From an uncultured Bacteroidota bacterium (GTDB lineage Bacteria; Bacteroidota; Bacteroidia; Chitinophagales; LD1): a stretch of DNA of 45,641 nt. Under the pieces are notes generated by a model. The model saw only the letters and a list, made by a program, of their open reading frames with translations. It was not told the origin of the DNA and ran no database searches. Position 1 is the first letter of the stretch, and each line of letters begins with the position of its first letter. Made by a program: the position numbers and the translations under genes. This document shows, piece by piece, positions 3,058 through 31,466 of this stretch. The stretch lies in contig CAIYOV010000128.1 of assembly GCA_903927935.1 (NCBI GenBank), forward strand, positions 1 to 45,641, given 5' to 3'.

Positions 3058-3111
3058 AATTTTTAGCTTTTTTATTTAAGACAAACTTATCCGCTATTCT
3101 ATTTTGGTGAT

Positions 3112-3125
3112 ATGATAAAACTCAT
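3112..3125 (-). promoter_or_regulatory. Type-a FNR-like box ATGAG-TTTT-ATCAT (minus-strand reading), fasciclin promoter
   Basis: 14-bp 5-4-5 near-palindrome. Exactly 22 nt upstream of a perfect Bacteroidota -7 element TAAGTTTG (3082-3089, minus), which is 24 nt before the ATG at 3057. Confidence 0.5.
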
Positions 3126-3188
3126 ATTGCTTACTTTTTTTAATCATATGGCTACGGTAGCTAAAAAAGGATACTTGCATCTTTTATT

Positions 3189-3641
3189 ATGAGAAACCTA
3201 ATCACATTATTTTTGCTTAGCTGTACTTTGCTTAGTTGCAATAACAGTCAGAATCAACCAAATCCTCAATCAGAGGGTGAAGAAAATTTCATTTCAGTAT
3301 TTAAAGAGGGTAAATACACAACCGACTTCGCCACAGCTCAGGAATTAAAAAGCATGCACTACACCATTGAAAATTTCACGCTGCTTAGTAATAAAAAGAA
3401 ACTTGAAAATCTGAAAGCCTATCAAGAATTTGGAGATTTGATGCAAATGCATGCAGACCGCATTACTACTTTTTGCCGCTTAGATGCGGATACCAAAAAT
3501 CTTCTCTGTAAGAAGGTAGATAAAATAAAAACTGAAGTTCAAACCCTGCATGGAGATGATATGGAGAAATCGAAAGCGGCTTTAAAAGCGATCAATTTAC
3601 ATCTTGCCGAAATCGATTCTTCGTTCAGCTATATGAATTAA
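3189..3641 (+). CDS. Hypothetical lipoprotein
   Basis: 150 aa. Lipobox LLSCNN. No motif I recognise. Its stop is 1 nt before the tryptophanase-family ATG, so the two are probably co-transcribed. Confidence 0.55.
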   Translation: MRNLITLFLLSCTLLSCNNSQNQPNPQSEGEENFISVFKEGKYTTDFATAQELKSMHYTIENFTLLSNKKKLENLKAYQEFGDLMQMHADRITTFCRLDADTKNLLCKKVDKIKTEVQTLHGDDMEKSKAALKAINLHLAEIDSSFSYMN

Positions 3642-3642
3642 G

Positions 3643-5022
3643 ATGAAGAAAGAACGAACCTTAGCGGAACCCTTTCGCATAAAAATGGTGGAGCCGCTAC
3701 GAATGACTACGGTAGAATACCGTAAGGATGTTTTACAGAAAGCTGGCTACAATCCTTTCCTTCTGAGTAGCGATGATGTATATATTGATCTGTTGACCGA
3801 TAGCGGTACCAGTGCAATGAGCGATCATCAATGGAGCGCCATGATGCTGGGCGATGAAAGTTATGCGGGCGCACACAGCTGGGAAAAGCTGGAGCGCGAA
3901 GTGAAAGATTTAACCGGTATGAATTATGTGCTGCCAACACATCAAGGAAGAGCTGCGGAAAGAATTTTGTATGGTATTCTTGGAGGAAAGGATAAAGTAT
4001 TTATAAGTAATACTCACTTTGATACTACCCGTGCCAATATTGAATTTACCGGTGCAACAGCTATTGACTGCATGAGTGAAGAATCTCAGGATCCTGATGC
4101 AGACCTTCCTTTCAAAGGGAACATGGATATAGAACAGGCCCGAGAAAGTATTTTGAAATACGGGAAAGAGAACATTGGTGCTGTTATTCTAACGGTCACC
4201 AATAATTCTTCGGGAGGGCAACCGGTGAGTATGGAAAACACAAAACAGGTTCGAGAGCTTTGCGATGAATTTGGAATTCTGTTTGTGTTGGATGGTTGCC
4301 GCATTGCAGAGAACAGCTACTTCATTAAACATCGGGAAGCAAATTTTGACGGGAAAACCTATCGGCAAATTGCGCAACAAATGCTTTCGTTATGCGATGC
4401 ATTTATTATGAGCGCGAAGAAAGATGCGCTTGTGAACATGGGAGGGTTGTTAGTATTGCGCAATGAATTACTTGCTCAAAAATCTACTAACCTTCTTATT
4501 ATATCAGAAGGCTTTGCAACTTATGGAGGATTGAGTGGGCGAGATATGGAAGCAATGGCTGTTGGTCTTCAGGAAGTTTTTGATGCCGGTTATTTACATT
4601 ACCGAATCAAAAGTACAGAATATCTCGGCAAACATTTGCACGAAAAAGGTGTGCCTTTGATTCGACCGTATGGAGGTCATGCCATTTATATTGATGCCAA
4701 AAAATTTTACAGCCACATTCCGGCCCATCAATTCCCAGGTCAGGCATTAGTGTGTGATCTATACGAGCAAGGAGGTATTCGCTGTGTAGAAGTCGGTTCT
4801 GTAATGTTCGGCAAATATGATGAGCATGGAAATCATGTGGCACCCAAGAACGAATTAGTTCGTTTGGCAATTCCGCGCAGGGTTTATACGCAAAGCCATA
4901 TTGATTACGTAATTGATGTTTTTGATGATATCGTTGAAATGAAAAATCAAGCACGCGGATTGGAAATAGTTTATGAGCCACCTTTTTTGCGACACTTTAC
5001 TGCAAGATTTAAAAGATTGTAA
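3643..5022 (+). CDS. Tryptophanase / tyrosine phenol-lyase family beta-eliminating lyase (PLP-dependent)
   Basis: 459 aa, collinear with the TnaA/TPL family as I remember it: EPFRIKMVEP, YIDLLTDSGT, PTHQGRAAE, PLP-lysine region MSAKKDALVNMGG, AIPRRVYTQSHIDYV and YEPPFLRHFTARF. TnaA and TPL cannot be separated by eye. Confidence 0.85.
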   Translation: MKKERTLAEPFRIKMVEPLRMTTVEYRKDVLQKAGYNPFLLSSDDVYIDLLTDSGTSAMSDHQWSAMMLGDESYAGAHSWEKLEREVKDLTGMNYVLPTHQGRAAERILYGILGGKDKVFISNTHFDTTRANIEFTGATAIDCMSEESQDPDADLPFKGNMDIEQARESILKYGKENIGAVILTVTNNSSGGQPVSMENTKQVRELCDEFGILFVLDGCRIAENSYFIKHREANFDGKTYRQIAQQMLSLCDAFIMSAKKDALVNMGGLLVLRNELLAQKSTNLLIISEGFATYGGLSGRDMEAMAVGLQEVFDAGYLHYRIKSTEYLGKHLHEKGVPLIRPYGGHAIYIDAKKFYSHIPAHQFPGQALVCDLYEQGGIRCVEVGSVMFGKYDEHGNHVAPKNELVRLAIPRRVYTQSHIDYVIDVFDDIVEMKNQARGLEIVYEPPFLRHFTARFKRL

Positions 5023-5055
5023 TTCGCAAAAGCGGTCAATTCATCTACATAGAAG

Positions 5056-5069
5056 CTGAGTAAAATCAT
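5056..5069 (+). promoter_or_regulatory. Type-a FNR-like box CTGAG-TAAA-ATCAT, ric-rrf2 promoter
   Basis: 23 nt upstream of the -7 element TAGCTTTG (5093-5100), which is 19 nt before the ric ATG. Confidence 0.5.
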
Positions 5070-5119
5070 ATTTAAGACAACCAAGTCCGAAATAGCTTTG
5101 CATCGACAAAAAATGAAAC

Positions 5120-5875
5120 ATGGAAATAGAAACACTTAATAGCAAAACGGTTGCTGAATTGGTAGCCAACGATTATCGCACTGCAGAAATATTTAAAAAA
5201 CATGGCATTGATTTTTGCTGTGGTGGTAAGAAGAGTATTGCAAAAGTATGCAGCGAGAAAAATATAATTGCCGAAGAAATTGAAAAGGAAATTCTTGCAT
5301 TACAACATCAACCGAAGGATAGTGACCACAACTTTAACGAATGGTCACTCATTTTTTTGACAGACTACATTTTAAATGTACATCACACCTACGTAAGTAA
5401 CAATCTAGGACTGATTTCGGAATTTGCAGAAAAAGTCGCACGAGTTCATGGAGATCATAGTCCCGAAACAAAAGACATAGCTAAGCTTTGGGGTGAGATT
5501 GTGAGTGAACTTACTATGCACATGAAGAAAGAGGAACTGTTGTTATTTCCTTACATTAAGAATGTAGAACGGTACAGTAAAGGAAGTTTGAAAGAATTTC
5601 CTTCTACACATTTCGGCACAATAAAAAGTCCTATCAGAATGATGGAACAGGAACACGATTTGGTGGGAAGTCTGATGAAACAAATTCAGGTGTTAAGCAA
5701 CGACTTTATTGTACCTGATTATGCCTGCAATACTTATCGGGTCTTATATGCCAAATTGGAGGAATTTCAGAACGATTTGTTTCAGCATATTCATTTAGAA
5801 AATAACATTCTTTTTCCGAAAGCCATTTTGCTGGAAGAAAATTTGACTCCAGCAGATAATAGTAACTCTATATGA
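5120..5875 (+). CDS. ric: Iron-sulfur cluster repair di-iron protein (RIC/ScdA/YtfE family)
   Basis: 251 aa. ScdA_N-type N-terminus (HGIDFCCGG) followed by hemerythrin-like His/Glu motifs (HHTYV, HMKKEE, EQEHD, HIHLENNILFP). Confidence 0.85.
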   Translation: MEIETLNSKTVAELVANDYRTAEIFKKHGIDFCCGGKKSIAKVCSEKNIIAEEIEKEILALQHQPKDSDHNFNEWSLIFLTDYILNVHHTYVSNNLGLISEFAEKVARVHGDHSPETKDIAKLWGEIVSELTMHMKKEELLLFPYIKNVERYSKGSLKEFPSTHFGTIKSPIRMMEQEHDLVGSLMKQIQVLSNDFIVPDYACNTYRVLYAKLEEFQNDLFQHIHLENNILFPKAILLEENLTPADNSNSI

Positions 5876-6309
5876 TGTTCTCCAAAAGTTGCGAGTATGC
5901 TTTAAAGGCGGTGATTCATCTTTGTATAAAAGCAAAAGGGGAATCACGATTGAACATTTCTGAAATTTCTCGGGCCATTGATTCGCCAGAACCTTTTACC
6001 GCTAAAATTTTACAAACACTTTCACGGCATGGAATTATTTCTTCTATTAAAGGACCCGGAGGTGGCTTTTATATTGATAAAAAAGCAGCGCCAATCCGTG
6101 TGATAGAGATTATTGATTTAATAGACGGCAAACATGCGTTCGATCGCTGCGGTTTAGGTTTAAAAGATTGTAATGAAGACAGGCCCTGTCCAATTCACAA
6201 GGAATTTAAAAGCTACTCCGTCCAGTTAAAACACTTGCTTGAAACAAAAACTATTCAGGAATTTGCGAAAGAAATTTCTCGGGGTAACGCGTTCTTAATA
6301 AACACATAA
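5872..6309 (+). CDS. Rrf2-family transcriptional regulator with Cys3(His) cluster ligands (NsrR/IscR-like)
   Basis: 145 aa. Rrf2 winged-helix N-terminus (SKSCEYALKAVIHL, ISEISRAIDSPEPFTAKILQTL) and CGLGLKDCNEDRPCPIH. ATGA start/stop overlap with ric. Confidence 0.85.
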   Translation: MMFSKSCEYALKAVIHLCIKAKGESRLNISEISRAIDSPEPFTAKILQTLSRHGIISSIKGPGGGFYIDKKAAPIRVIEIIDLIDGKHAFDRCGLGLKDCNEDRPCPIHKEFKSYSVQLKHLLETKTIQEFAKEISRGNAFLINT

Positions 6310-6347
6310 ATCAATAGAAAAAGACAAAGGGGTCTTTTTCTATTGAT
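6310..6347 (+). terminator. Perfect 16-bp-stem hairpin immediately after the rrf2 stop (terminator-like)
   Basis: ATCAATAGAAAAAGAC (6310-6325), loop AAAGGG, GTCTTTTTCTATTGAT (6332-6347), then TTTAAAT. It separates ric-rrf2 from the nos operon. Confidence 0.6.
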
Positions 6348-6356
6348 TTAAATCAT
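6343..6356 (+). promoter_or_regulatory. Type-a FNR-like box TTGAT-TTAA-ATCAT, cytochrome c/nosZ promoter
   Basis: Closest match in the window to TTGAT-N4-ATCAA. 44 nt upstream of the -7 element TATTTTTG (6401-6408), which is 31 nt before the cytochrome c ATG. The left half lies inside the right arm of the preceding hairpin. Confidence 0.5.
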
Positions 6357-6439
6357 ATAATAGCTTGACCGATCTCATAAGCGGGATCAGTCATTAAACA
6401 TATTTTTGTCACCGAAAATTTAAAAACAAACAAAAAAGC

Positions 6440-6928
6440 ATGAAAAGAAAACTTCTCTCACTTGCAACAGTAGCAGCGCTGTTCTTTATTAGTAGCTGTG
6501 GCAACCATGAAAAATCAGAAAACGAAAGTTCCGAAGCACCGCAAAGCATGGTGCAGGACGCCCCTAAAGATGATGGGCAAGGCATTGGTAAATTCAAAAA
6601 TATAACACTTGCTGCGCTAGATGAAAAATTAGCAGAGCAGGGCAAAGTGGTTTTTGAAGCTAAGTGTTCTGCATGCCATAATGCTACGGATGTTAGAAAA
6701 GTTGGCCCTGGTTTGAAGGGAGTTACAGAAAGAAGACAACCGGCTTGGATTCTTAATCAAATTACAAATCCTACAGAAATGCTACAAAAAGACCCGACAT
6801 CAAAAGAGTTGTTAGCTGTATACTTAACACAAATGACTTTTCAGGACGTGAGTGATGATCAGGCAAAACAGATTCTGGAATATTTCAGACAGAATGATAA
6901 GGGCGGAGCAGAGCAAGCGAAGAAGTAG
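6440..6928 (+). CDS. Monoheme c-type cytochrome lipoprotein (nos-associated electron donor candidate)
   Basis: 162 aa. Lipobox FISSC and a single heme motif CSACH. 33 nt upstream of nosZ. Confidence 0.8.
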   Translation: MKRKLLSLATVAALFFISSCGNHEKSENESSEAPQSMVQDAPKDDGQGIGKFKNITLAALDEKLAEQGKVVFEAKCSACHNATDVRKVGPGLKGVTERRQPAWILNQITNPTEMLQKDPTSKELLAVYLTQMTFQDVSDDQAKQILEYFRQNDKGGAEQAKK

Positions 6929-6961
6929 TCACTAATCACTAACCATAAAAAACAATAAACA

Positions 6962-8926
6962 ATGAAAAACGTTTCAATTAAAAATCTAATGCTACTGGTA
7001 GCAGGATTTTTCGCAGCTGGCTTTTTCAGCAGTTGCAAACCACCAAAAGTTGATTCAGCCCTCTCAGGCGATGCAGCTAAAAAAGTTTACGTAGCACCAG
7101 GCAAGAAAGATGAACTCTATCTGTTCACTTCCGGTGGCTTTAGCGGGCAAGTGGGAGTTTACGGTTTGCCTTCAGGAAGATTGCTGAAGCAGGTTCCCGT
7201 ATTTTCTCAGGATGCTGAAACCGGTTACGGTTACAGCGAAGAAACAAAACCGATGCTGATGACTTCACACGGATATACTCCGTGGGATGACTCGCATCAC
7301 CCCCAACTTTCGCGCACTGATGGCCAGGATGATGGTCGTTGGTTATTCATCAACGCGAATAATACTCCGCGGATTGCACGTATGGATTTGGGCATTTTTA
7401 AAACCACAGAAATTATTGAGTTACCGAATTGCGGTGGTAATCATGCATCGCCTTTTACCACTCAAAATACCGAGTATGTAGTTGGGGCTTCGCGCTTCTC
7501 TGTTCCTTATGACAAAGATGGTGATGCCGCTATTGCAGATTATAAAGACAAATTCAAAGGCACTATTTCTTACATAAAAGTTGACCCGCAAACAGGAAAT
7601 ATGAAATTGAATTTTCAGTTGTTGGTTCCGGGCGTTGATTACGATTTATCGAGAGCAGGTAAAGGGGTTTCACATGGCTGGAATTTCTTTAGTTGCTACA
7701 ACAGCGAAAAAGCGCATACACTTTTGGAAGTGAATGCTTCACAACGCGATAAAGATTTTATCATGGCGGTGAACTGGAAAAAGGCTGAAGAATATTTAGC
7801 ACAAGGCAAAGGTATGAAATGGGCTGCAAACTATGCACATAACGTGATGGATGAGAAAACTCATACTGCAACCTCTACTATGGAAAAAGAAGTTACAGTG
7901 ATGGACGTAAAAGACCTCCCAGGTGTTTGTTACTTCATTCCATGTCCAAAATCTCCGCATGGTTGCGATGTTGACCCAACAGGTGAATACATCTGTGCTT
8001 CAGGAAAATTAGCGGCTGTAATTCCGGTATATTCATTTAGCAAAATGCTTAAAGCAATTGAAGCAAAAAATTTCGATGGCGATTTTGATGGTGTTCCGGT
8101 AATTAAATACGAAGCAGCATTAGATGGCGAAGTTGAAAAACCAGGTCTTGGTCCTTTGCATACAGAGTTTGATAATGAAGGTCACGGTTACACTTCATTC
8201 TTCGTTTCATCTGAAATTGTGAAATGGGATGTAAAAACAAAACAGATTCTTGATCGCGTTCCAACTTACTATTCAATTGGCCACTTGTGTGTACCAATGG
8301 GCGACAACATTCATCCTTATGGTAAGTATGTAATTGCTTTGAATAAAATTACCAAAGACCGTTACCTGCCAACCGGTCCTGAGTTAGCTCAGTCGGCACA
8401 GTTGTATTCTATTGACGGAGCTAAAATGCAGCTGTTGCTTGACTTCCCAACTATTGGTGAGCCGCACTATGCACAAGCTTGTCCTGCCGAATTAATTACT
8501 AAACACGAAGTGAAGTTTTTCAAACTCGACAGCAACAATCATAAGTATGTAACAAAGAATGAAAAAGAAGCAAAGGTAGTTCGCAACGGAAACGATGTTC
8601 ATGTTTACATGACTGCGATACGTTCGCACTTTACACCGGATAATATTGAAGGTGTAAAAGTGGGTGATAATGTTTACTTCCATGTAACTAATCTTGAACA
8701 GGATTGGGATGTTCCTCATGGATTTGCTGTGAAGGGCGCGAATAATTCAGAGTTGTTGGTATTGCCAGGTGAAACTTCAACTTTAAAATGGACTCCTGAC
8801 CATTCCGGTGTATTCCCAATGTATTGCACCGATTTTTGTTCAGCACTCCATCAGGAAATGCAAGGCTATGTGCGCGTATCGCCTGCGGGTACAAATACCG
8901 CTCTCAAGTTTTCTACAGGCGAATAG
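6962..8926 (+). CDS. nosZ: Nitrous-oxide reductase, Sec-dependent (clade II) type
   Basis: 654 aa. Propeller His motifs (DDSHHP, GGNHASP, SPHGCD, EPHYAQ) and C-terminal CuA cupredoxin motif CTDFCSALHQEMQG. The N-terminus MKNVSIKNLMLLVAGFFAAGFFSSC lacks a twin-arginine motif and ends in a lipobox-like SSC. Confidence 0.95.
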   Translation: MKNVSIKNLMLLVAGFFAAGFFSSCKPPKVDSALSGDAAKKVYVAPGKKDELYLFTSGGFSGQVGVYGLPSGRLLKQVPVFSQDAETGYGYSEETKPMLMTSHGYTPWDDSHHPQLSRTDGQDDGRWLFINANNTPRIARMDLGIFKTTEIIELPNCGGNHASPFTTQNTEYVVGASRFSVPYDKDGDAAIADYKDKFKGTISYIKVDPQTGNMKLNFQLLVPGVDYDLSRAGKGVSHGWNFFSCYNSEKAHTLLEVNASQRDKDFIMAVNWKKAEEYLAQGKGMKWAANYAHNVMDEKTHTATSTMEKEVTVMDVKDLPGVCYFIPCPKSPHGCDVDPTGEYICASGKLAAVIPVYSFSKMLKAIEAKNFDGDFDGVPVIKYEAALDGEVEKPGLGPLHTEFDNEGHGYTSFFVSSEIVKWDVKTKQILDRVPTYYSIGHLCVPMGDNIHPYGKYVIALNKITKDRYLPTGPELAQSAQLYSIDGAKMQLLLDFPTIGEPHYAQACPAELITKHEVKFFKLDSNNHKYVTKNEKEAKVVRNGNDVHVYMTAIRSHFTPDNIEGVKVGDNVYFHVTNLEQDWDVPHGFAVKGANNSELLVLPGETSTLKWTPDHSGVFPMYCTDFCSALHQEMQGYVRVSPAGTNTALKFSTGE

Positions 8927-8941
8927 GTTAATGATTGACAT

Positions 8942-8971
8942 GAAGGGAGCCATTCGGCTCCCTTCTTTTTC
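8942..8971 (+). terminator. Intra-cluster rho-independent terminator/attenuator after nosZ
   Basis: Perfect 10-bp stem GAAGGGAGCC (8942-8951), loop ATTC, GGCTCCCTTC (8956-8965), then TTTTTCTT. Located 16 nt after the nosZ stop. Confidence 0.75.
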
Positions 8972-9018
8972 TTACAGAATTTCTGATAGGTTTTGGACTG
9001 ACGGTTCAATCAAAAAAA

Positions 9019-9591
9019 ATGAAGAAGTTAAAGATATTTACGCGAATTATTATTGCTGTTTGTGCGCTTGCTATGGTTCCCTCAAACTTCGTTTCGGTAT
9101 GGCAAATTCAATTAGAAGCACCGCAATATCCGGAAGGAATGAAAATGGAAATCTGGAGTCATAAAATTGCCGGTGACATTGACAAAATCAATAATTTGAA
9201 TCACTATATTGGAATGGCACAGATTAAGGAAGAAAATTTTCCGGAGTTTAAAATTATGCCGTGGATGATTTGGGGTTTCGTTCTGTTAGGGCTAGCTACT
9301 GCAATAGTTGGAAGAAGATTTATGCTCTGGATTTTTACTTCGGTTTTAGTAGCCAGCGGGGCCTGGGGTATTTATGATTTCTGGAAATGGGAATATGAAT
9401 ATGGACATAATCTCAATCCACACGCTGCCATCAAACTACCGGGCATGAGTTATCAGCCTCCTTTGTTTGGTTGGAAACAGTTACTGAATTTTCTTGCGGG
9501 TTCATTTCCCGATATTGGCGGATGGCTCATTATTGCTCCTGCAGTAGTCGTAGTCGCTTTATTGATGTATGAAATGTTTAGAAAAAAATGA
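9019..9591 (+). CDS. nos-cluster integral membrane protein (NosB-like position, function unknown)
   Basis: 190 aa with about 4 hydrophobic segments. It sits between nosZ and nosL. ATGA overlap with nosL. Confidence 0.6.
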   Translation: MKKLKIFTRIIIAVCALAMVPSNFVSVWQIQLEAPQYPEGMKMEIWSHKIAGDIDKINNLNHYIGMAQIKEENFPEFKIMPWMIWGFVLLGLATAIVGRRFMLWIFTSVLVASGAWGIYDFWKWEYEYGHNLNPHAAIKLPGMSYQPPLFGWKQLLNFLAGSFPDIGGWLIIAPAVVVVALLMYEMFRKK

Positions 9592-10016
9592 AGAAGATTT
9601 TCTTCTTCGTGTCTCTTATTGTTTTCCTCTCTTCTTGCAACAACGAGCCACAGGCAATTGTCTACGGTATTGATTTATGCCAGCATTGCAAGATGACCAT
9701 CATGGATAAAAAGTTTGGAGCCGAGTTAATTAACAAAAAAGGTAAGGCGCTGAAATTTGATTCCGGTGAGTGTATGGTAGCTTATATGAAAGCGGACAAG
9801 AATTTCACGGTTGATAAAACTCTTATAATCAATTACGCTAATCCCGAAGAGCTGATTGATGCAGATAAATCATTTTTCCTTCATGGAGGAAACGTAAACA
9901 GCCCTATGGGCGGACAACTTGCTGCCTTTAAAACAAGAGAAGACGCAGAAAAATTACAGAAAGAGTTGCAAGGTGAGTTATTATTGTGGGACAAAGTTGT
10001 AGGACTCAGCTTCTAA
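9588..10016 (+). CDS. nosL: NosL copper-chaperone lipoprotein
   Basis: 142 aa. Lipobox LSSC and Cys/Met motifs CQHCKM, SGECM and SPMGG. Position is upstream of nosD. Confidence 0.8.
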   Translation: MKKIFFFVSLIVFLSSCNNEPQAIVYGIDLCQHCKMTIMDKKFGAELINKKGKALKFDSGECMVAYMKADKNFTVDKTLIINYANPEELIDADKSFFLHGGNVNSPMGGQLAAFKTREDAEKLQKELQGELLLWDKVVGLSF

Positions 10017-10019
10017 TTC

Positions 10020-21850: not shown

Positions 21851-21900
21851 CTGTTGTTATTTTGCTATTGCGAAGTTCGCTTATTTCCTGTTACCGGTTC

Positions 21901-21914
21901 GGAACATTTGTTAC
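21901..21914 (-). promoter_or_regulatory. Type-b box GTAAC-AAAT-GTTCC, promoter of the membrane protein/trxA/rhodanese-lipoprotein unit
   Basis: Exactly 22 nt upstream of the -7-like GAACTTCG (21871-21878), which is 20 nt before the ATG at 21850. Confidence 0.5.
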
Positions 21915-21922
21915 AGAGATGA

Positions 21923-22237: not shown

Positions 22238-22249
22238 GTTGTTTTGTTT

Positions 22250-23101: not shown

Positions 23102-23109
23102 TTCGTTTT

Positions 23110-23361: not shown

Positions 23362-23581
23362 GATTGTTGTTTTGATTGTTGTTATTAATTGTTTGGTCTT
23401 TTTGAAATGTGTTAAGGAGAAGTGCGCCCATCATGGCTCCATACAAAGTGCTGTTAAGTGGTTTGGAAGTAATGGCGCATGTTTCGCTTGCGCATCCTAC
23501 AAAATAATAATAGAGATAGCCGCCAATTGCCCCAACTAATATACCTATGATAGTCAGCTTATGTTTTTTAATGAATTCCAT
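23354..23581 (-). CDS. Small two-TM membrane protein with CxxxxC motif (GCASETCAITS)
   Basis: Start moved to MEFIKKHKL (23581), because the tracked start overlaps the upstream gene. Possibly a DUF6132-type protein (from memory). Confidence 0.5.
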   Translation of the reverse strand: MEFIKKHKLTIIGILVGAIGGYLYYYFVGCASETCAITSKPLNSTLYGAMMGALLLNTFQKDQTINNNNQNNNHE

Positions 23582-23591
23582 TTTTTGGGTT

Positions 23592-25007: not shown

Positions 25008-25062
25008 TATTCTTGTAATTTGTTTTACGATGCAAAAATGCAGTACCGAAAAATTGTAGTTG

Positions 25063-25076
25063 GGAACATTTGTTGC
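25063..25076 (-). promoter_or_regulatory. Type-b box GCAAC-AAAT-GTTCC, promoter of the MBL-rhodanese ... rhodanese unit
   Basis: Exactly 22 nt upstream of the -7-like CATTTTTG (25033-25040), which is 25 nt before the ATG at 25007. Confidence 0.55.
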
Positions 25077-25088
25077 ATAAGGCTTAAT

Positions 25089-25460
25089 TCACTTTGTATT
25101 GAACCAGATTTTTGCAGCTATTAACACCAACACAACAGCGAATCCTTTTTTCAAACTCTCCTGTGGAATATGCGTGGCAAACTTTGCTCCAAAGTATCCA
25201 CCAATGAAAAACATTGCCGCCAGAATAAGCGCAGTTTTAATTTCTACAAAGCCCTGCTGATAATATTGCCAAGCGGCTAAAGCCCCTACAGGCAATACCA
25301 TCATCACCAACGCAGTACCCTGAGCCATTTGCTGAGAGAAGCCGAGCAGCATAACCAATGCTGGAATGATGACAATGGCGCCACCTAATCCCAGCAATCC
25401 GCTCAATACTCCACCAACCAGACCAATAAGTCCTTTAAAAATTATTTGTGATGGATTCAT
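25089..25460 (-). CDS. TauE/SafE-family (sulfite exporter-like) membrane protein, half-size
   Basis: 123 aa with about 4 TM segments. GLLGLGGAIVIIP motif. Confidence 0.7.
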   Translation of the reverse strand: MNPSQIIFKGLIGLVGGVLSGLLGLGGAIVIIPALVMLLGFSQQMAQGTALVMMVLPVGALAAWQYYQQGFVEIKTALILAAMFFIGGYFGAKFATHIPQESLKKGFAVVLVLIAAKIWFNTK

Positions 25461-25461
25461 T

Positions 25462-25656
25462 TTATTTTTTCTCCTGTTTGGTAGAAAATCTGAAAGACAA
25501 ATACAGCGGACAGAAACTTAGAGCAGATGTAAGCAGAAGAATTCCTGCAAAAACTAAAAGGATAATGGCAACAGTTCCACTAATGATATTCGTAAAATAA
25601 AGGATTACAACAATTGATGCTGCGATAATTCGTGCAACGCGATCAAGGGTTCCCAT
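25462..25656 (-). CDS. DUF2892 (YgaP-like transmembrane domain) protein
   Basis: Start moved to MGTLDRVARI (25656), because the tracked longer ORF would contain its own promoter and box. The C-terminal motif SFCPLY is shared with the 26346-26552 paralogue. Confidence 0.7.
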   Translation of the reverse strand: MGTLDRVARIIAASIVVILYFTNIISGTVAIILLVFAGILLLTSALSFCPLYLSFRFSTKQEKK

Positions 25657-25718
25657 ATTTGGTTTCAAATTGTTTGCTTTTTGTAGTGCAAAGATCCGGC
25701 ACCATAAAAACATGATTA

Positions 25719-25732
25719 GGAACATTTGTTAC
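25719..25732 (-). promoter_or_regulatory. Type-b box GTAAC-AAAT-GTTCC, promoter of the DUF2892/TauE unit
   Basis: Exactly 22 nt upstream of the -7-like GATCTTTG (25689-25696), which is 32 nt before the ATG at 25656. Confidence 0.55.
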
Positions 25733-25739
25733 AGAATGG

Positions 25740-26336
25740 CTAATTAATTCTGTTCATGTATACCGAAACTAAAGGCAAATGAAATTCCATGCTTTCAATT
25801 TTGCCGTTATTAAGATGATAAACATTCCGGTGTCCGTCTGAACTATTAAATTCTAATGTTTTTGAATCAATATGCTTTATTTCATAAAAACTTGCATCCG
25901 GTAAATAAAAAATGCGCTTCACGTTTTTATAATCACAGAAATAAATATTTGCATCAGAACAAATTGGTGCCTCTGAAAAATAACGTGTTGTCTGATTGTT
26001 TGATTCAACCTGATATTGTCTGCCATCATATTTAACCTTAGCCCAACGCTTGGTCTTTCCATTTTCAATCTCAGCATGCGAAGAGGAAATCAATCTGCTA
26101 TTTTTATAAACCGCTTCAAATTTTGAAAGCCCTTCTCTTACAATCCACAAAAATTTTGCTTTCGATTTTGATTCTAACCGGTAAACATCACTGCTGTCTT
26201 TATCAAGCGTATGAACTACATCCATGCGCCCGATGCTATCGCCCCACAGCATAATTTTGAATGATACTGTTTGAGCAGAAAGCACACCAAACGAAACACT
26301 AAATAAAAAGGCCAACCAAAATTCTCTTGCCCGCAA
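25740..26336 (-). CDS. Hypothetical secreted protein
   Basis: 198 aa. Signal peptide ...FGVLSAQT. The mature part looks beta-rich. No recognisable catalytic motif. Confidence 0.5.
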   Translation of the reverse strand: MRAREFWLAFLFSVSFGVLSAQTVSFKIMLWGDSIGRMDVVHTLDKDSSDVYRLESKSKAKFLWIVREGLSKFEAVYKNSRLISSSHAEIENGKTKRWAKVKYDGRQYQVESNNQTTRYFSEAPICSDANIYFCDYKNVKRIFYLPDASFYEIKHIDSKTLEFNSSDGHRNVYHLNNGKIESMEFHLPLVSVYMNRIN

Positions 26337-26345
26337 TTGTGTTAT

Positions 26346-26552
26346 TTATTTTTTCTTGCCCAAAGTGGAAATACCAAAAGGCAAATATAACGGGCAGAAA
26401 CTGATGAGTGATGTGAGAATGAAAATTCCCGCAAACACCAATAACACAATGGCTAAAGTTCCGCTAATTAAGTTCATAAAATAAAGTAGAATGACTACTG
26501 CAGCGGCAAGTAATCTTATTACTCTATCAATGGTTCCTATGTTTGATTTCAT
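26346..26552 (-). CDS. DUF2892 (YgaP-like transmembrane domain) protein
   Basis: 68 aa. IGTIDRVIRLLAA ... SFCPLYLPFG. A clear paralogue of 25462-25656. Confidence 0.7.
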   Translation of the reverse strand: MKSNIGTIDRVIRLLAAAVVILLYFMNLISGTLAIVLLVFAGIFILTSLISFCPLYLPFGISTLGKKK

Positions 26553-26601
26553 ATTATTTGATTTTATAGTGCAAAGATGTTGTATTGTAAAATCGCAGTT
26601 G

Positions 26602-26615
26602 GGAACATTTGTTAC
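26602..26615 (-). promoter_or_regulatory. Type-b box GTAAC-AAAT-GTTCC, promoter of the DUF2892/secreted-protein unit
   Basis: Exactly 22 nt upstream of the -7-like CATCTTTG (26572-26579), which is 19 nt before the ATG at 26552. Confidence 0.55.
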
Positions 26616-26623
26616 TTACCAGA

Positions 26624-26637
26624 ATGATTTTAATCAA
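26624..26637 (-). promoter_or_regulatory. Type-a FNR-like box TTGAT-TAAA-ATCAT, 8 nt upstream of the type-b box
   Basis: 44 nt from the same -7 element (26572-26579), matching the spacing at the nos promoter. It overlaps the stop codon of the Crp/Fnr gene. Confidence 0.45.
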
Positions 26638-27245
26638 TCTAATAACTCGATCACATTTCTGCCCAACCGCACTAAATTTTTCTGTTCCATTTGGCGTAGT
26701 AATCTGCTAATTGCTTCACGGTGTGTGTGCAGTTCATCTGCAATTTGCTGGTGAGTAATGTGAAGTGCTTTTGTATTTAACGCCTGTGCACGCCTTTGCA
26801 AATAATTCAATAACTGAGCATCCATATTGCTGAAAGCAATCAGGTCAATTACATTCATCAGTTCCGCATAACGAATGGCGTATGTGTTGTTGACGAACTC
26901 TTTCCACTCACGAAATCGAAACCATTCATCTACCAGTTCAGCTGGTACCATATACACTTCGGTTTCATCTTCAGTAACCGCTTTTATCATACTTATTTGG
27001 TTCGCGCGGCAACAATTGAGCGACATGGCACAAGTTTGTCCGGGGTAGATATGATAAAGAAAAATTTCACGTCCATCATCGTTTGCTCGAATTACACGAA
27101 TGCTTCCTTTCATTACAATAGGAACAAACAAAATTTTATCTCCGGGATACATCAACACTTCCTCTGCAGCAAAATGTTTTACACGTGCGTGTTTGTTGAA
27201 CTCGGCTAATAGCTGCGGGTCTTTAAAAAAAATATTGGCTGGCAT
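26634..27245 (-). CDS. Crp/Fnr-family transcriptional regulator
   Basis: 203 aa. cNMP-binding-like beta-roll and HTH ITHQQIADELHTHREAISRLLRQMEQ, which has an R-E-x-x-S-R recognition helix. No N-terminal Cys cluster of the E. coli FNR type. Confidence 0.85.
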   Translation of the reverse strand: MPANIFFKDPQLLAEFNKHARVKHFAAEEVLMYPGDKILFVPIVMKGSIRVIRANDDGREIFLYHIYPGQTCAMSLNCCRANQISMIKAVTEDETEVYMVPAELVDEWFRFREWKEFVNNTYAIRYAELMNVIDLIAFSNMDAQLLNYLQRRAQALNTKALHITHQQIADELHTHREAISRLLRQMEQKNLVRLGRNVIELLD

Positions 27246-27284
27246 TATTCGATTTAGCGCGAAACTATTTCTATTGCTTGTATT

Positions 27285-29720
27285 TTATAAACCATTTTTT
27301 CTACCCGCCCAAGTTGATGCGATTGTAGTAAACAAAATAATCGTCACCGAACTTATGGGCATGAGCACCGCAGCAATAAGAGGGCTCATTGTTCCTTTTA
27401 TAGCAAACGAAATTCCTAACAGATTGTAACAGAGCGAAATCACAAAACTAGCTTTGATAATGTTTACTCCTGTTTTAGAATAATTCAATAGGGTATCAAT
27501 TTTATCAAATTGACTTGAATCTATAATGCCGTCACAAGCAGGTGAAAAATTATTTACATCATCGCTGATGGCAATTCCAACTTCTGCCTGTTTTAAAGCC
27601 CCTGCATCATTTAGTCCATCGCCAATCATCATCACTTTTTTGTTGTCAGATTGAATCTGCTTAATCACACATAATTTTTCTGCAGGTTGCTGATGAAATA
27701 CAAGATTCTTCTCGTTTACGTATTGTTTCAGGAAATTCTTCTCCGCATCATTATCGCCACTTACTACATATATTTCAAAATACTTTCGAAGTTTATTCAT
27801 CATCGCACCGAAACCATTCCGGTATTCATTTTTTACCAGGAAGAATCCCCGCACTTTTCCGTTGATACTTACATATACCTTTGAAGCGTGGCGAAAATCG
27901 GAAACATGTGAACCGTCAGCATTCACTTCACCGACCAAAAATTTCTTAGAACCGATACGAACACTATTTTCATCCACCCAACCTTCAACGCCTTTTCCTT
28001 CCTCTTCTTTAAAATCTTCTGTTGGAATAATTTTTACTCCTTTCAAATACTCATAAACTTTTTTGCTGAGAGGATGTGAAGAATGATAGACCAGTGATTT
28101 TATAAGTTGAAGTTCATACTCAGTGATTGATTCGTTGGAATTTTCTTCTGCCTTTACAAACTCAATTTTCGAATTCTTAGTATTTGTAAGGGTTCCGGTT
28201 TTATCAAACACAATTGAATTGATTTGTGCTAATTTCTCAATTGTTAGCGCGTTCTTTAAATAAATTTTATTCCGTCCGAGTATTCGTAGAATATTTCCGA
28301 GTGTAAACGGAGAAGATAAAGCTAACGCGCATGGACAAGTAATGATGAGCACCGAGGTAAAAGCGTTGAGCGCTTTATGTAAATCTTTGTTCCACCAGTA
28401 AGCTGAAGCCAGAAATGCAATGCTAATTACAACCGGAGTAAACCAATTGCTCACCATTGTAGCGAGCGATGTGATATTTTCTTTTTGTTCTTTATTGAAT
28501 GCAGAATCATTCCAAAGCTGTGTGAGGTAACTGTGCGAAACATCTTTCATCACTTCCACTTCAATAGCGCCACCCATTTGTTTTCCTCCTGCATAAATCA
28601 AATCGCCACTGTTTTTTGAAATGGGAGTCGCTTCACCGGTCACGAAACTGTAATCAATATTTCCTTTACCTTTTATTAAAACCGAATCTGCCGGAATCAG
28701 TTCCATGTTGCGCACTAACATTCTGTCGTGCAGACGAAGATTGGTGAGTGGAATGGTAGTTTCATTTCCATTGTTGACAGTGGTAACCGCAACTGGGAAA
28801 TACGATTTGTAATCACGCTCAAAGGAAAGTGTATCGTACGTTTTGTTTTGAAACAATCTTCCAATCAGCATTAAGAGCATCAAACTTGCCATGGTATCGA
28901 AATAACCGCCACCGGTATGCGAGAATACTTCGTAAGTGCTGCGAATGAACATGGCAAGAACGCCAAGCACAATCGGAAAGTCCATGTTCAGTGCTTTTTG
29001 TTTCAGTGCACCCCATGCCGAAACAAAAAATTCTTCAGAGCAATAAAACAAAACCGGAAGTGAGAGAGCAAAATTTAAGTAACCGAAAAATTTTCTAAGC
29101 GGAGATTCTGTAAGTGCATTTATTCCTAAATACTCTGGAAAAGTAAGCAGCATAATGTTTCCAAAACAGAAAAACGCTACTCCAATTTTCAGATAATATC
29201 TCCTCAGGTGATGTTCCTTTTCTTTCCGAGTTAAATCATTGAGGTTGATGTGCGGCTCATAACCTAAAGAAGCAAGTGTTTCAACCACCTGACGGAGATT
29301 CAACTTTGAATTGTCAAATGCGATATGCACTTCACGTTTCATGAAATTGACATTGCTTCGTTTTATTCCGTTCTTTATTTTAAATAGATTCTCCAATAAA
29401 AAGATGCACGAACTGCAATGAATTTGCGGCATGTAAAAAATAACAGTAGAAATATTTCCATCTTTAAACTGAATTAATTGTCTGGCCACCTGTACATCTT
29501 CAAGGTAGGCGTATTTTTTTGCGTTTACTTCTTTTTTGAATGAGGTGCCGGGGGCATTATTCATGTCGTAGTAACTGCACAGATTGTTCCCATCAAGAAT
29601 TTCAAAAACAGTTTTGCAACCGGTGCAGCAGAATTGATGCTGATTAAAAACAATGCTACCATCACAGTTTTCACCGCAATGGTAGCACGTTAAAGATTCC
29701 TCTTCCTTTACTGCATTCAT
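27285..29720 (-). CDS. Heavy-metal (copper-type) P1B ATPase with CcoI/FixI-like N-terminal Cys-rich metal-binding domain
   Basis: 811 aa. N-terminal CYHCGENC...CCTGCKTVF, then TGEA, CPC, DKTGTLT, GDGLNDAGAL and C-terminal MPISS. Confidence 0.9.
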   Translation of the reverse strand: MNAVKEEESLTCYHCGENCDGSIVFNQHQFCCTGCKTVFEILDGNNLCSYYDMNNAPGTSFKKEVNAKKYAYLEDVQVARQLIQFKDGNISTVIFYMPQIHCSSCIFLLENLFKIKNGIKRSNVNFMKREVHIAFDNSKLNLRQVVETLASLGYEPHINLNDLTRKEKEHHLRRYYLKIGVAFFCFGNIMLLTFPEYLGINALTESPLRKFFGYLNFALSLPVLFYCSEEFFVSAWGALKQKALNMDFPIVLGVLAMFIRSTYEVFSHTGGGYFDTMASLMLLMLIGRLFQNKTYDTLSFERDYKSYFPVAVTTVNNGNETTIPLTNLRLHDRMLVRNMELIPADSVLIKGKGNIDYSFVTGEATPISKNSGDLIYAGGKQMGGAIEVEVMKDVSHSYLTQLWNDSAFNKEQKENITSLATMVSNWFTPVVISIAFLASAYWWNKDLHKALNAFTSVLIITCPCALALSSPFTLGNILRILGRNKIYLKNALTIEKLAQINSIVFDKTGTLTNTKNSKIEFVKAEENSNESITEYELQLIKSLVYHSSHPLSKKVYEYLKGVKIIPTEDFKEEEGKGVEGWVDENSVRIGSKKFLVGEVNADGSHVSDFRHASKVYVSINGKVRGFFLVKNEYRNGFGAMMNKLRKYFEIYVVSGDNDAEKNFLKQYVNEKNLVFHQQPAEKLCVIKQIQSDNKKVMMIGDGLNDAGALKQAEVGIAISDDVNNFSPACDGIIDSSQFDKIDTLLNYSKTGVNIIKASFVISLCYNLLGISFAIKGTMSPLIAAVLMPISSVTIILFTTIASTWAGRKNGL

Positions 29721-29778: not shown

Positions 29779-29988
29779 TTATGAATGACTTTTTTCTTTT
29801 TCTTTTTCAGTATTTAGTCCCAGCATCTCATATATCGGGCACCAGCCAAGCACGGCAGTAACAAATAATATACCTGTTGGAATTATCCAAAGCCAACTGG
29901 TACCTCCAGCCATAATTGCGTAGCATATTGATACAATAAAGAGAAGCGTTCTAAACCAGCCATCAAAACTGCTGAGATTTGTTTTCAT
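29779..29988 (-). CDS. DUF2892-like small membrane protein
   Basis: 69 aa with two TM segments. FDGWFRTLLF ... GWCPIYE resembles the other two DUF2892 proteins. First gene of the ATPase unit. Confidence 0.55.
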   Translation of the reverse strand: MKTNLSSFDGWFRTLLFIVSICYAIMAGGTSWLWIIPTGILFVTAVLGWCPIYEMLGLNTEKEKEKSHS

Positions 29989-30056
29989 AATAATTTGGTG
30001 TTTTGTGTTATTAATGTTAGTAGTGCAAATGTGCTTTACATTTCAATAAATGGTGT

Positions 30057-30070
30057 ATGATTTTCACCAA
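30057..30070 (-). promoter_or_regulatory. Type-a FNR-like box TTGGT-GAAA-ATCAT (proximal), DUF2892/ATPase promoter
   Basis: 23 nt upstream of the -7-like CACATTTG (30026-30033). Confidence 0.45.
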
Positions 30071-30078: not shown

Positions 30079-30092
30079 ATGATTTTCGTCAG
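30079..30092 (-). promoter_or_regulatory. Type-a FNR-like box CTGAC-GAAA-ATCAT (distal), DUF2892/ATPase promoter
   Basis: 22 nt start-to-start from the proximal box, and 45 nt from the -7-like element. Confidence 0.45.
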
Positions 30093-30099
30093 GTATTTT

Positions 30100-30129
30100 T
30101 AATAAAAAGGAACGTATTCCGCTCCTTTT
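30100..30129 (-). terminator. Rho-independent terminator after the 125-aa hypothetical gene
   Basis: Minus-strand AAAAGGAGCG, loop GAATA, CGTTCCTTTT (one G-U pair), followed by TATTAAAAA. Confidence 0.6.
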
Positions 30130-30154
30130 AAACCATATGCCACATATTAGCAAA

Positions 30155-30532
30155 TTACATGGTTCTGCTTAGAAAACTATTGAATTCAAAGCGTAAATCT
30201 GCAAAGGCTGAATTAAAATTTTTCACACGCTCTTGCATTTTATAGTGCCGCACTACAAATTTTTCGTTTATGTGTTCAGGTGTTTGCTTTGCTTTTTCTT
30301 CTACCCCCAATTGTTCTTTGCTTAAATCGTGTTTAAGAATATCTAATTGTTCCTTGGTAATAATAAACTTGTTTTGAAAGTGCTCTACATGCGCTAAAAT
30401 TTCGTGCGAGTTGTTCTTAGAGGCAACTTCCTGTAAACGTTTCTCCAAAATAGAGATTTCATGTCTGTAAAAATCTGTCTCACGCTGCCAGTCTGTAATC
30501 TGGTGGTGTAAAAAGGCTAATGATGCTTTCAT
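30155..30532 (-). CDS. Hypothetical coiled-coil protein
   Basis: 125 aa, helical and charged. Located 41 nt downstream of the Usp gene, so probably co-transcribed. Confidence 0.45.
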   Translation of the reverse strand: MKASLAFLHHQITDWQRETDFYRHEISILEKRLQEVASKNNSHEILAHVEHFQNKFIITKEQLDILKHDLSKEQLGVEEKAKQTPEHINEKFVVRHYKMQERVKNFNSAFADLRFEFNSFLSRTM

Positions 30533-30573
30533 TTTGTGTTTGGTTTATGGTTAAATAATTGTTCTAAAGTCAT

Positions 30574-31410
30574 TCACTGATGCGTAATAAATACAGGCAC
30601 ATTCAGTTCTTTTATTATCCGGCTACTTAAACTTTGATGGAAAAATCTCGATAGTGCATTTCTGCCAAAAGATCCCATTACCACAATAGAATTATCGCCT
30701 TTTTGTTTTAATAGCTGCATCAACTTTTCTTCTGCGTCTCCGTGTAATAATTCATAATTAACGTCATCATAATGTTGTCTAATCATTTCCTTCAGGTGGC
30801 TGCCTTCTTTTAAATGATTACCCGAATGTTCGTTTACACTAACCACACTTGTTTCCATACCACTAAGCTCGGGGAACAGATAGGCGAACATTTTAATAGC
30901 ATACACACTCGAAGGACTGCCATCATAACAAAGTATTATTTTATCGAAATACGAGTAGTGATGCGGCACAATCATCACCGGACAATGAGCATCAACCATT
31001 AAATCTTTCAGAAACGGGCTTGGTGCGCCTTCGCTGAAGCTAAAAAAGCCGGTATGCGAATCAATAATCAGTACATCAGCAAATACACTTTCTTGAATTA
31101 CTTCCTGTAACGGAACACCTTTATCAAAGTGAACTTTATGATGAACCCCTTTTTCATCACACGCACGCTTGAAGAGTTTAATATTCAAATTAATCTTATC
31201 AAATTCTCCTTTCTGCGAGTTTTCCAGGGCAGTATAATCTACAAAAGGTTGGTCCCAAGCGTATGCATAGGTGAAATTGAGATAACGCAAATCTTGAATA
31301 AAGATGCCAACCAGCATCGAGCCAGTTGTCTTTGCCATTTCTATAGCATACTTCGAAGTCCCCTCTACATACTTTGTGCCGTCAAAAACTGCAAGTATTT
31401 TTTTCATCAC
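30574..31410 (-). CDS. Tandem universal stress protein (two UspA domains)
   Basis: 278 aa. Two Usp-like halves, with a C-terminal ATP-type motif VMGSFGRNALSRFFHQSLSSRI. Confidence 0.8.
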   Translation of the reverse strand: MMKKILAVFDGTKYVEGTSKYAIEMAKTTGSMLVGIFIQDLRYLNFTYAYAWDQPFVDYTALENSQKGEFDKINLNIKLFKRACDEKGVHHKVHFDKGVPLQEVIQESVFADVLIIDSHTGFFSFSEGAPSPFLKDLMVDAHCPVMIVPHHYSYFDKIILCYDGSPSSVYAIKMFAYLFPELSGMETSVVSVNEHSGNHLKEGSHLKEMIRQHYDDVNYELLHGDAEEKLMQLLKQKGDNSIVVMGSFGRNALSRFFHQSLSSRIIKELNVPVFITHQ

Positions 31411-31452
31411 TTCGAATTTTCACAAAGGTGTAATGTCTAAAGTTTTGAAGTA

Positions 31453-31466
31453 ATGATTAGCGTTAT
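31453..31466 (-). promoter_or_regulatory. Weak type-a box ATAAC-GCTA-ATCAT, usp promoter
   Basis: 22 nt upstream of the -7-like CACCTTTG (31423-31430). The distal half-site is degenerate. Confidence 0.35.

Follow-up and report, generated by a model that had tools for sequence, protein, structure and literature searches.

Gene content of the window

The stretch analysed here, 45,641 nt from an uncultured Chitinophagales bacterium (hereafter the window; 9% of it non-coding), carries a nos operon for nitrous oxide (N2O) reduction, and our subject is a short inverted repeat, the FNR-type box, that lies upstream of this operon and of several other genes, together with the regulator that may read it. 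The gene map was based on a listing of open reading frames (ORFs) combined with Pfam and NCBIfam scans. The source is a freshwater member of the Chitinophagales whose nearest NosZ in GTDB is 94% identical, and the sequencing runs holding window sequence were exclusively lake-water and freshwater metagenome DNA, with no RNA run found.

The left end of the window encodes, on the minus strand, a hybrid regulator composed of receiver (REC), cNMP-binding-like and Crp-type helix-turn-helix (HTH) domains (100-1161), a PAS histidine kinase (1168-2427) and a fasciclin protein (2500-3057), all three assigned by Pfam. On the plus strand follow an unknown lipoprotein gene (3189-3641) and a beta-eliminating lyase gene (together 3189-5022), then ric (ScdA/hemerythrin) and rrf2 (5872-6309; together 5120-6309), and then genes for cytochrome c, nosZ, nosB-like, nosL, nosD, nosF and nosY (6440-12725), with Pfam support for both of the latter groups. 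The nosZ product is of the Sec type (clade II; TIGR04246, 920 bits). Further along lie a DUF3943 gene (18088-18801, plus strand), a beta-CASP metallo-beta-lactamase (MBL)-fold hydrolase gene (18798-20198) and a sulfur-related block on the minus strand (20319-26552), which comprises an OsmC fragment, thioredoxin, three rhodaneses, TPMT-HMA, MBL-rhodanese, TauE, DUF6134 and three small YgaP-like/DUF2892 ORFs. Also on the minus strand are a plain Crp/Fnr regulator with an REAISR recognition helix (26634-27245), a P-type ATPase with a CcoI/FixI-type N-terminal metal-binding domain (27285-29720), a further DUF2892 ORF (29779-29988), an unknown gene (30155-30532) and a tandem universal stress protein (Usp) gene (30574-31410); the regulator, the ATPase and Usp were assigned by Pfam. 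The names given in the initial annotation to the fasciclin, RIC and Rrf2, cytochrome c and NosZ, DUF2892, P-type ATPase and Usp products agreed with Pfam. The remaining genes of the window are unrelated to the box-linked systems.

A palindromic operator shared by Bacteroidota nos loci

For comparison, 80 Bacteroidota NosZ loci were fetched and their genes called and labelled, giving 81 loci with the window (L numbers denote individual loci). A Gibbs sampler supplied with no motif was run on 60 cytochrome c-nosZ upstream regions, leaving out the window and its seven closest relatives. The 16-bp palindrome it returned, TATGAy-N4-rTCATA, had 14.7 bits and typically stood 48-64 nt away from the start codon. 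The top matches of this matrix in the window included the fasciclin, ric, nos and ATPase boxes listed in the initial annotation, four of whose seven boxes were thus strong on sequence alone. The Crp/Fnr type of operator proposed there, a TGA-N6-TCA core within an inverted repeat of 14-16 bp, was borne out. Its consensus was not, since the family consensus found de novo differs from TTGAT-N4-ATCAA; this canonical sequence showed no intergenic enrichment in the window (9 of 59 matches with ≤2 mismatches were intergenic, for a window that is 9% intergenic) and was therefore dropped in favour of the motif learned from other genomes. Motif position 1 was A in 80% of nos sites, and A, T or C in loci with the hybrid regulator; the lineage consensus of the window clade is nTGAs-N4-(A/C)TCAT.

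Matches were concentrated between genes. In the window, 6-7 sites of ≥10 bits fell in 3.9 kb of intergenic DNA vs 4-5 in 41.7 kb of coding DNA. The pattern TGA-N5-ATCAT had eight matches vs 2.5 expected from shuffles; these represent seven distinct sites, six of them non-coding, where about 0.3 would be expected from intergenic base composition. Among the compared loci, the core with ≤1 mismatch was present in 60 of 72 nos-operon upstream regions vs 62 of 304 intergenic regions between unlabelled genes, and the perfect core in 34/72 vs 10/304. Over 1.5 Mb, the density of perfect cores in intergenic DNA was seven times that in coding DNA; of the intergenic ones, 36 preceded the nos operon, 10 Crp-type regulator genes, 9 fasciclin, 8 RIC and 3 ATPase genes. 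The comparison of promoter with non-promoter DNA suggested in the initial annotation thus gave a 7- to 19-fold enrichment in promoters. In alignments the boxes stood out as conserved islands at the nos and fasciclin promoters of L001-L007 and at the ATPase promoter of L001, and did so again in L091 and L097; box and spacing recurred ahead of clade II nos operons across the Bacteroidota.

A lineage-specific variant, TATGAyTnnACGCATA, in which the promoter-proximal half reads ACGCATA and not ATCATA, occurred at the nos promoters of L014, L031, L049, L051-L053, L056, L059, L063, L064, L066, L077 and L080. Strong matches inside nosB were rejected as regulatory evidence, as all of them fall on the conserved peptide Y-D/E-Y-G-H-N, which, encoded as TAT GAn TAy GGn CAT A, is a coding mimic of the operator. 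The mimic was present in L001, L010, L012, L016, L018, L023, L034, L037 and about 15 further loci, and calls for caution in genome-wide box scans.

Spacing of the boxes relative to the -7 element

At all loci, spacing was taken as the distance between a box and the nearest [T/C]AnnTTTG on its gene-facing side. Among boxes with a perfect core, 13 of 37 lay at exactly 22 nt and 15 of 37 at exactly 44 nt. With ≤1 mismatch allowed, 76 of 111 box-to-(-7) pairs had spacings of 21-23 or 43-45 nt, compared with 3 of 13 in the upstream-direction control. Mapped transcription starts of Flavobacterium psychrophilum place the sigma-A motif TAnnTTTG at -12 to -5 (PMC9723704), so that a 22-nt gap puts the 14-mer at -48 to -35, centred on -41.5, and the 44-nt class is centred on -63.5. 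Box centres in the window organism would accordingly be predicted at -41.5 and -63.5, and the class II activator position that had been proposed from the window agrees with the spacing of 22-23 nt.

The boxes at 44-45 nt had been described as class I-like. Their spacing held, whereas their isolation did not: two of the three in the window are distal members of tandem pairs. Nearly all 44-nt cases, other genomes included, had a second box after an 8-nt gap, and we therefore regard them as distal tandem members and not as isolated class I sites. The proximal box of each pair occupied the 22-nt position. Tandem pairs in the window (proximal/distal) precede nos (6365/6343), the DUF2892-ATPase unit (30057/30079) and usp (31453/31475), and single boxes precede fasciclin (3112), ric (5056) and the DUF3943 gene (18057). 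The exception is the box at 26624, whose proximal partner is a different motif, GTAACAAATGTTCC. Altogether, four or five window promoters had a second box exactly 22 nt further upstream.

The box position also bears on a repressor model, in which the Rrf2-family (NsrR-like) protein encoded at 5872-6309 would occupy the boxes and be released by nitric oxide (NO). A 16-bp TGA-N6-TCA palindrome is a signature of Crp/Fnr proteins, and Rrf2 repeats are longer. The sites are centred at -41.5, where an activator would sit, and cover neither the -7 element nor the start; an Rrf2 gene is missing from the neighbourhood of most nos loci that carry a box. These observations outweigh the standing of ric as a classic NsrR target and the frequent presence of Rrf2 genes near clade II nos clusters, both in the compared loci and in a metagenomic study that also notes occasional NnrR-like genes (PMC6264515). 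We rejected Rrf2 as the reader on box position and locus distribution and consider the model highly improbable.

Individual boxes in the window

All seven 14-mers of the initial annotation were found again with the exact letters, and the distances of 22-23 or 44-45 nt to a -7 element held for every one of them. The positions of the -7 elements were likewise confirmed, except that three read CAnnTTTG instead of TAnnTTTG. The proposed connection of nos, ric, fasciclin, the CcoI-type ATPase and usp through one box was supported, and three further boxes with a full core were added, at nos, the DUF3943 gene and usp.

At the cytochrome c-nosZBLDFY promoter, the distal box TTGATTTAAATCAT (6343-6356, plus strand; 12.3 bits) lies 44 nt from the -7 element TATTTTTG (6401-6408), is centred at about -63.5 and forms an invariant block in the L001-L007 alignment. 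The proximal box TTGACCGATCTCAT (6365-6378, plus strand; 11.4 bits), absent from the initial annotation, lies 22 nt from the same element, at about -41.5, and is kept as yTGACnnnnCTCAT in L001-L007, L091 and L097. Directly abutting the distal box is a hairpin, AAAGAC-N5/6-GTCTTT followed by T's (6310-6342), also kept in L001-L007. It is probably the rrf2 terminator, in which case nos would depend on its own activator-dependent promoter and not on read-through from ric-rrf2.

The fasciclin box ATGAGTTTTATCAT (3112-3125, minus strand) was the top matrix match in the window (15.4 bits). It lies 22 nt from the -7 element TAAGTTTG (3082-3089, minus strand), which aligns with TAnnTTTG in relatives, is centred at about -41.5 and is kept in L002-L007, L091 and L097 amid diverging flanks. 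The same promoter may possibly serve the whole fasciclin-kinase-regulator unit. The divergent gene at 3189 also has this box in its distal position and is faced by the weak half-site CTTTTTTTAATCAT (3134-3147, plus strand), whose first base lies 22 nt beyond that of the 3112 box. This half-site is a probable candidate for the proximal box of gene 3189-3641 in a tandem layout with 3112, and comparable half-site proximal boxes were seen in L014 and L080.

Ahead of ric-rrf2, the box CTGAGTAAAATCAT (5056-5069, plus strand; 14.6 bits) lies 23 nt from the -7 element TAGCTTTG (5093-5100). A box at 22-23 nt was also found at the RIC genes of more distant loci, at least eight in number; L004 and L007, in which the gene order differs and ric comes straight after the upstream gene, did not keep the ric box. 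A palindromic box that had not been listed before, ATGATTTCAATCAT (18057-18070, plus strand; 12.9 bits), lies ahead of the DUF3943 gene, 23 nt from CACTTTTG (18094-18101). No more than 4 nt separate the end of this predicted -7 element from the likely GTG start (VKKTFLFLFF..., signal-peptide-like), which implies either a leaderless mRNA or a wrongly called start.

The predicted promoter of the DUF2892-ATPase(-Crp/Fnr) operon has a distal box CTGACGAAAATCAT (30079-30092, minus strand; 12.6 bits) 45 nt and a proximal box TTGGTGAAAATCAT (30057-30070, minus strand; 7.6 bits) 23 nt from the -7 element CACATTTG (30026-30033). In L001 the distal box has one altered spacer base (CTGACTAAAATCAT), the proximal position reads TTGAGCGAGGTCAT, and the -7 element is conserved too. 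At usp, the proximal box ATAACGCTAATCAT (31453-31466, minus strand; 6.8 bits) lies 22 nt from CACCTTTG (31423-31430); its type, ATAAC...TCAT, also occurs at the nos promoters of L002 and L003. A distal usp box not previously noted, CTGACAAATCTCAC (31475-31488, minus strand), has the TGA-N6-TCA core, and its start is offset 22 nt upstream from that of the proximal box. Such a core at this fixed offset is unlikely to be due to chance, because it occurs at only 5.5e-4 per window position. Finally, the distal FNR-type box TTGATTAAAATCAT (26624-26637, minus strand; 8.0 bits) lies 44 nt from CATCTTTG, overlaps the stop codon of the plain Crp/Fnr gene and stands upstream of the DUF2892 ORF at 26346-26552 (DUF2892b) and the sulfur cluster.

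The boxes at 26624, 30057 and 31453 are weak on sequence alone and are supported by their position. Conservation adds support for 26624, which recurs as yTGAnnnnnnTCAT with identical placement in L082-L085, and for 30057 (L001). For 31453, additional support comes only from the box paired with it and from L080, where a Usp promoter is boxed too; among close relatives, none that covers it was recovered.

One could ask whether such boxes arise by chance in AT-rich promoters or simply reflect how promoters are composed. The pattern of the initial annotation was loose, the canonical FNR consensus was not enriched, three boxes scored below 8.5 bits, and coding DNA can mimic the box. Yet motif discovery blind to the window yielded the same box from other genomes, the spacing peaks are sharp, the box is conserved amid diverging flanks, and the promoter enrichment is 7- to 19-fold, which leaves this explanation a negligible likelihood. 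The boxes are very probably functional activator sites of the Crp/Fnr family at the positions described.

A second box and the plain Crp/Fnr protein

The motif in the proximal (-41.5) position of the 26624 promoter, GTAACAAATGTTCC (26602-26615, minus strand), is of a GTAAC type. Identical 14-mers were found at 25719-25732 and 21901-21914 and a GCAAC... variant with one change at 25063-25076, all on the minus strand. All four copies fall within the sulfur-gene block, with a weak -7-like element at a distance of 22 nt in each case. Orthologues of the plain regulator encoded at 26634-27245, recovered from metagenome loci at 73-86% identity, usually had a DUF2892 ORF and sulfur genes immediately downstream, and the GTAAC-type box stood beside them in all five scanned loci (L082-L086). 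In the 80 NosZ loci, no GTAAC-type box was found at promoter positions beside nos-cluster genes; two intergenic copies in these loci lay upstream of an MBL-rhodanese gene (L067) and an unlabelled gene (L027). Neither box type was found upstream of those plain-regulator orthologues that have their own promoters.

The initial annotation had named the plain regulator as one of two candidate readers of the FNR-type box. Its helix does carry Glu, Ser and Arg in the FNR register, its gene lies within the operon driven by the 30057/30079 boxes, and the window and L082-L085 alike have an FNR-type box that overlaps its stop codon. Aligned with CRP, however, the helix HREAISR shows the CRP-like triad Arg180-Glu181...Arg185. 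According to Rodionov et al. (PMC1274295), Arg180 goes along with an initial G in half-sites of the GTGA type, and the helix hence fits GTAAC/GTGAC better than A/TTGA. A REAISR-type protein was encoded in none of the 80 nos loci. The nearest relative, L001, lacks the whole block 20199-27284 including the plain regulator and yet keeps both ATPase boxes. From helix, box co-occurrence, synteny and L001 together, we therefore assign the protein to the GTAAC-type box, with which it travels in its own sulfur module; it more likely reads this box than the FNR-type box, and its action on the FNR-type boxes appears quite improbable. With this assignment, the DUF2892b promoter appears to integrate two regulators. 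In L001 the beta-CASP gene directly abuts the ATPase gene, and the block 20199-27284 looks inserted or deleted.

The closest known operator is that of HcpR2 (GTAAC-N4-GTTAC; Bacteroides, Clostridium and others; PMC1274295), with which GTAACAAATGTTCC agrees at 9 of 10 specified positions, and as with HcpR2 the box adjoins a Crp/Fnr gene. Unlike those of HcpR2, the predicted targets are rhodanese, MBL-rhodanese, TauE, DUF2892 and thioredoxin genes, and an hcp gene is absent. The plain regulator moreover has Glu at the CRP Glu181 position, where HcpR2 has Pro.

A receiver-Crp hybrid as the candidate reader of the FNR-type box

The hybrid encoded at 100-1161 (about 350 aa) combines REC, cNMP_binding and HTH_Crp_2 domains in one chain according to Pfam and has the recognition helix TESLIR. 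A different, plain nos-linked regulator (about 197 aa; helix RVETVIR) was encoded beside nos in 36 of the 81 loci. The corresponding helix of FNR is VETISR, from which RVETVIR differs by Ile in place of Ser. Both VETVIR and TESLIR have Glu and Arg in an FNR-like register and lack the CRP Arg. In nine loci, including the window, the hybrid with TESLIR takes the place of the plain regulator, always beside a PAS kinase. The two kinds of regulator did not co-occur in any of the 81 loci (hypergeometric p about 0.003, uncorrected for phylogeny).

The genomic context of the hybrid also connects it with the box. Hybrid-kinase operons, often in the order RIC-kinase-regulator, were boxed upstream in L008, L020, L043, L048 and L071. 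The boxed fasciclin gene is immediately followed by the kinase and regulator genes in the window and L091; in L097 the pair adjoins fasciclin and is encoded on the opposite strand. In L092, a hybrid 84% identical to that of the window is encoded beside ccoS-ccoNOQP-ccoGH and a CcoI-type ATPase, with tandem boxes preceding ccoS. The operon of the cbb3 oxidase is a classic low-oxygen target.

The receiver of the hybrid keeps Glu9, Asp10, Asp53, Thr83 and Lys105 when read against CheY. Its cNMP-like domain is devoid of the CRP contacts to cAMP (Glu72, Arg82 and Ser83): the Arg82/Ser83 positions are occupied by Glu/Asp in the hybrid and by Pro/Ser in one plain nos-linked regulator, and the REAISR protein has a gap there. 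The FNR pattern Cys-x2-Cys-x5-Cys with a central Cys is absent from the hybrid, and the REAISR protein has only TCAMSLNCC in the middle of its sensor domain. The hybrid family comprises at least 120 clusters; the best 120 listed were all at least 66% identical, had the same three domains and bore generic names only. In NCBIfam neither regulator of the window reached any curated family cut-off, and no chain spanning both halves of the hybrid was found in the PDB.

We lean towards the hybrid as the reader of the FNR-type box, judging from helix, context and distribution. Several observations weigh against this choice and against the wider scheme developed below. L002-L007 keep the boxes and have no hybrid within 10 kb of nos; L094-L096 have a hybrid and no strong box nearby; the REAISR gene has an FNR-type box at its 3' end in all recovered orthologous loci with DUF2892b behind it (L082-L085); and three window boxes (26624, 30057, 31453) are below 8.5 bits. 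The hybrid and the REAISR protein both carry the TGA-reading Glu/Arg, which makes cross-recognition possible, and a plain regulator of the VETVIR type could lie outside the 45.6 kb of the genome that the window covers. The haem-PAS domain of the kinase, discussed in the next section, could sense NO or carbon monoxide (CO) and not O2.

Such a plain VETVIR regulator, encoded elsewhere, might read the boxes while the hybrid controls something else or shares the sites. The frequency of VETVIR genes beside nos and the fact that their sites yield the same motif speak for this, as does the absence of either kind of regulator within 10 kb in L002-L007. On the other side, the hybrid and the plain regulator share no nos locus, boxes lie upstream of hybrid operons, and in the window clade the hybrid repeatedly adjoins nos (window, L091 and L097). 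We consider a plain regulator in this role unlikely and retain the hybrid.

The putative haem-PAS kinase and a proposed two-protein relay

The kinase encoded at 1168-2427 has a single PAS domain that resembles the haem domains of FixL and DosP. The 13 best matches of this domain in the PDB, the full set with E ≤ 1e-12 (E about 1e-13 to 1e-14), were FixL or DosP haem domains. Its Lys-His aligns with the proximal His200 of FixL and its Gly-Gly-Gly-Arg with Gly-Ile-Gly-Arg220; the proximal His was invariant in seven orthologous kinases, and the equivalent of Arg220 was present in 7 of 8 kinases. We propose that the kinase binds haem and senses oxygen (or NO), and that oxygen is the signal seems to us an even call.

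In the proposed mechanism, the deoxy (or NO-bound) kinase would phosphorylate the receiver of the hybrid, whose Crp module would then bind as a dimer at -41.5 and recruit RNA polymerase, the box taking the place of the -33 element in a Bacteroidota sigma-A promoter. The active state of the kinase, deoxy or NO-bound, and the choice between O2 and NO as the signal are what we infer from the domain. The whole relay would amount to a FixL-FixJ-FixK chain collapsed into two proteins. The predicted regulon comprises cytochrome c-nosZBLDFY, ric-rrf2, the DUF2892-CcoI-type copper ATPase operon, usp and the DUF3943 gene, as well as fasciclin and, probably, the kinase and regulator genes that follow it; at the sulfur-gene cluster, the FNR-type box would act as a co-input.

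Taken together, a set of activator boxes of the Crp/Fnr family, the hybrid as their reader and a FixL-like kinase as input is a reading we hold with moderate confidence, its binder, activation and signal being deduced from sequence. Its extension, that in much of the Bacteroidota (the Chitinophagales and their relatives) N2O reduction is switched on by a two-protein oxygen relay of haem kinase and Crp-output response regulator, acting class II on -33/-7 sigma-A promoters and replacing, in a lineage-specific manner, the plain Crp/Fnr regulators found next to clade II nos clusters in other parts of the phylum, is put forward tentatively, at slightly less than even likelihood.

Relation to known systems

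In Bradyrhizobium diazoefficiens, FixL-FixJ-FixK2 controls nosRZDFYLX and fixNOQP. The window system resembles this cascade in having a haem-PAS kinase on top, a Crp/Fnr-type module with a TGA-N6-TCA palindrome at about -41.5, and N2O reductase, cbb3 oxidase (L092) and a FixI/CcoI copper ATPase among the putative targets. It differs in that the receiver is fused to the Crp-type module, that the promoters have a TAnnTTTG -7 element, that the outer box bases are A/T-swapped (ATGAT...ATCAT), and that the nos cluster is Sec-type clade II without nosR. As the LuxR-type output of FixJ and a separate FixK are absent, it is not a FixLJ-FixK cascade; nor is it FNR proper, because the Fe-S cysteine motif is absent, or CRP, because the cAMP contacts are absent.

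With the FNR/ANR and DNR/NnrR boxes of proteobacterial denitrifiers (PMC1274295), the window boxes share the core, the 14-bp geometry and the class II logic, and the regulons have in common nos, NO-stress genes and a high-affinity oxidase. They differ in the outer bases, which are not TTGAT...ATCAA, and in the commonness of tandem -41.5/-63.5 pairs. Unlike FNR, neither window candidate has the cysteine cluster, and input to the hybrid would come by phosphorylation of the fused receiver.

In the Campylobacterota, NssA/B/C of Wolinella have been proposed as Crp/Fnr regulators of clade II nosZ. A Crp/Fnr regulator has also been proposed for clade II nosZ in Nitrosophilus labii (PMC11539149). What they share with the window is that a member of the Crp/Fnr family is put forward as the activator of a clade II nosZ; they belong to another phylum, with a different type of promoter and a differently built regulator, for which a receiver fusion is not reported. 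A CRP/FNR meta-regulon paper treats the Bacteroidota homologues as MalR-like, and nosZ is absent from its text. Our literature search found no described regulator or operator for Bacteroidota nos genes and no published description of a class of receivers with a Crp/Fnr output.

Bacteroidota with clade II NosZ are prominent candidate N2O sinks in lakes, soils and wastewater plants. The analysis supplies a phylum-wide operator, an exact promoter geometry and two candidate regulators with separable predicted targets, and the predicted regulon ties nos to the cbb3 oxidase, the CcoI-type copper pump, NO-damage repair (RIC) and stress proteins. The boxes also offer a worked example of predicted class II-type activation at Bacteroidota -7 promoters. 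What triggers N2O reduction in Bacteroidota thereby becomes a directly testable question, and cultured carriers exist for both regulators, the hybrid in Flavisolibacter nicotianae X7X (L048) and the plain regulator in Flavobacterium cucumis (L045) and Chitinophaga eiseniae (L060).

Further observations

A beta-CASP MBL-fold hydrolase gene like that of the window also stood beside the kinase-hybrid pair in L020 and L094-L096; no box was found upstream of the window copy (18798-20198). A 42-bp tandem repeat (37135-37380; 5.9 copies, 91% matches) lies inside an 870-nt gene-poor stretch and can be read as a repetitive ORF (HRLPPVIGRPPRVT...), although it is probably no gene. Just past it, at 37478-37493, is a box-like palindrome, AATGACTTCTGTCATT (10.2 bits), 283 nt before the next start codon.

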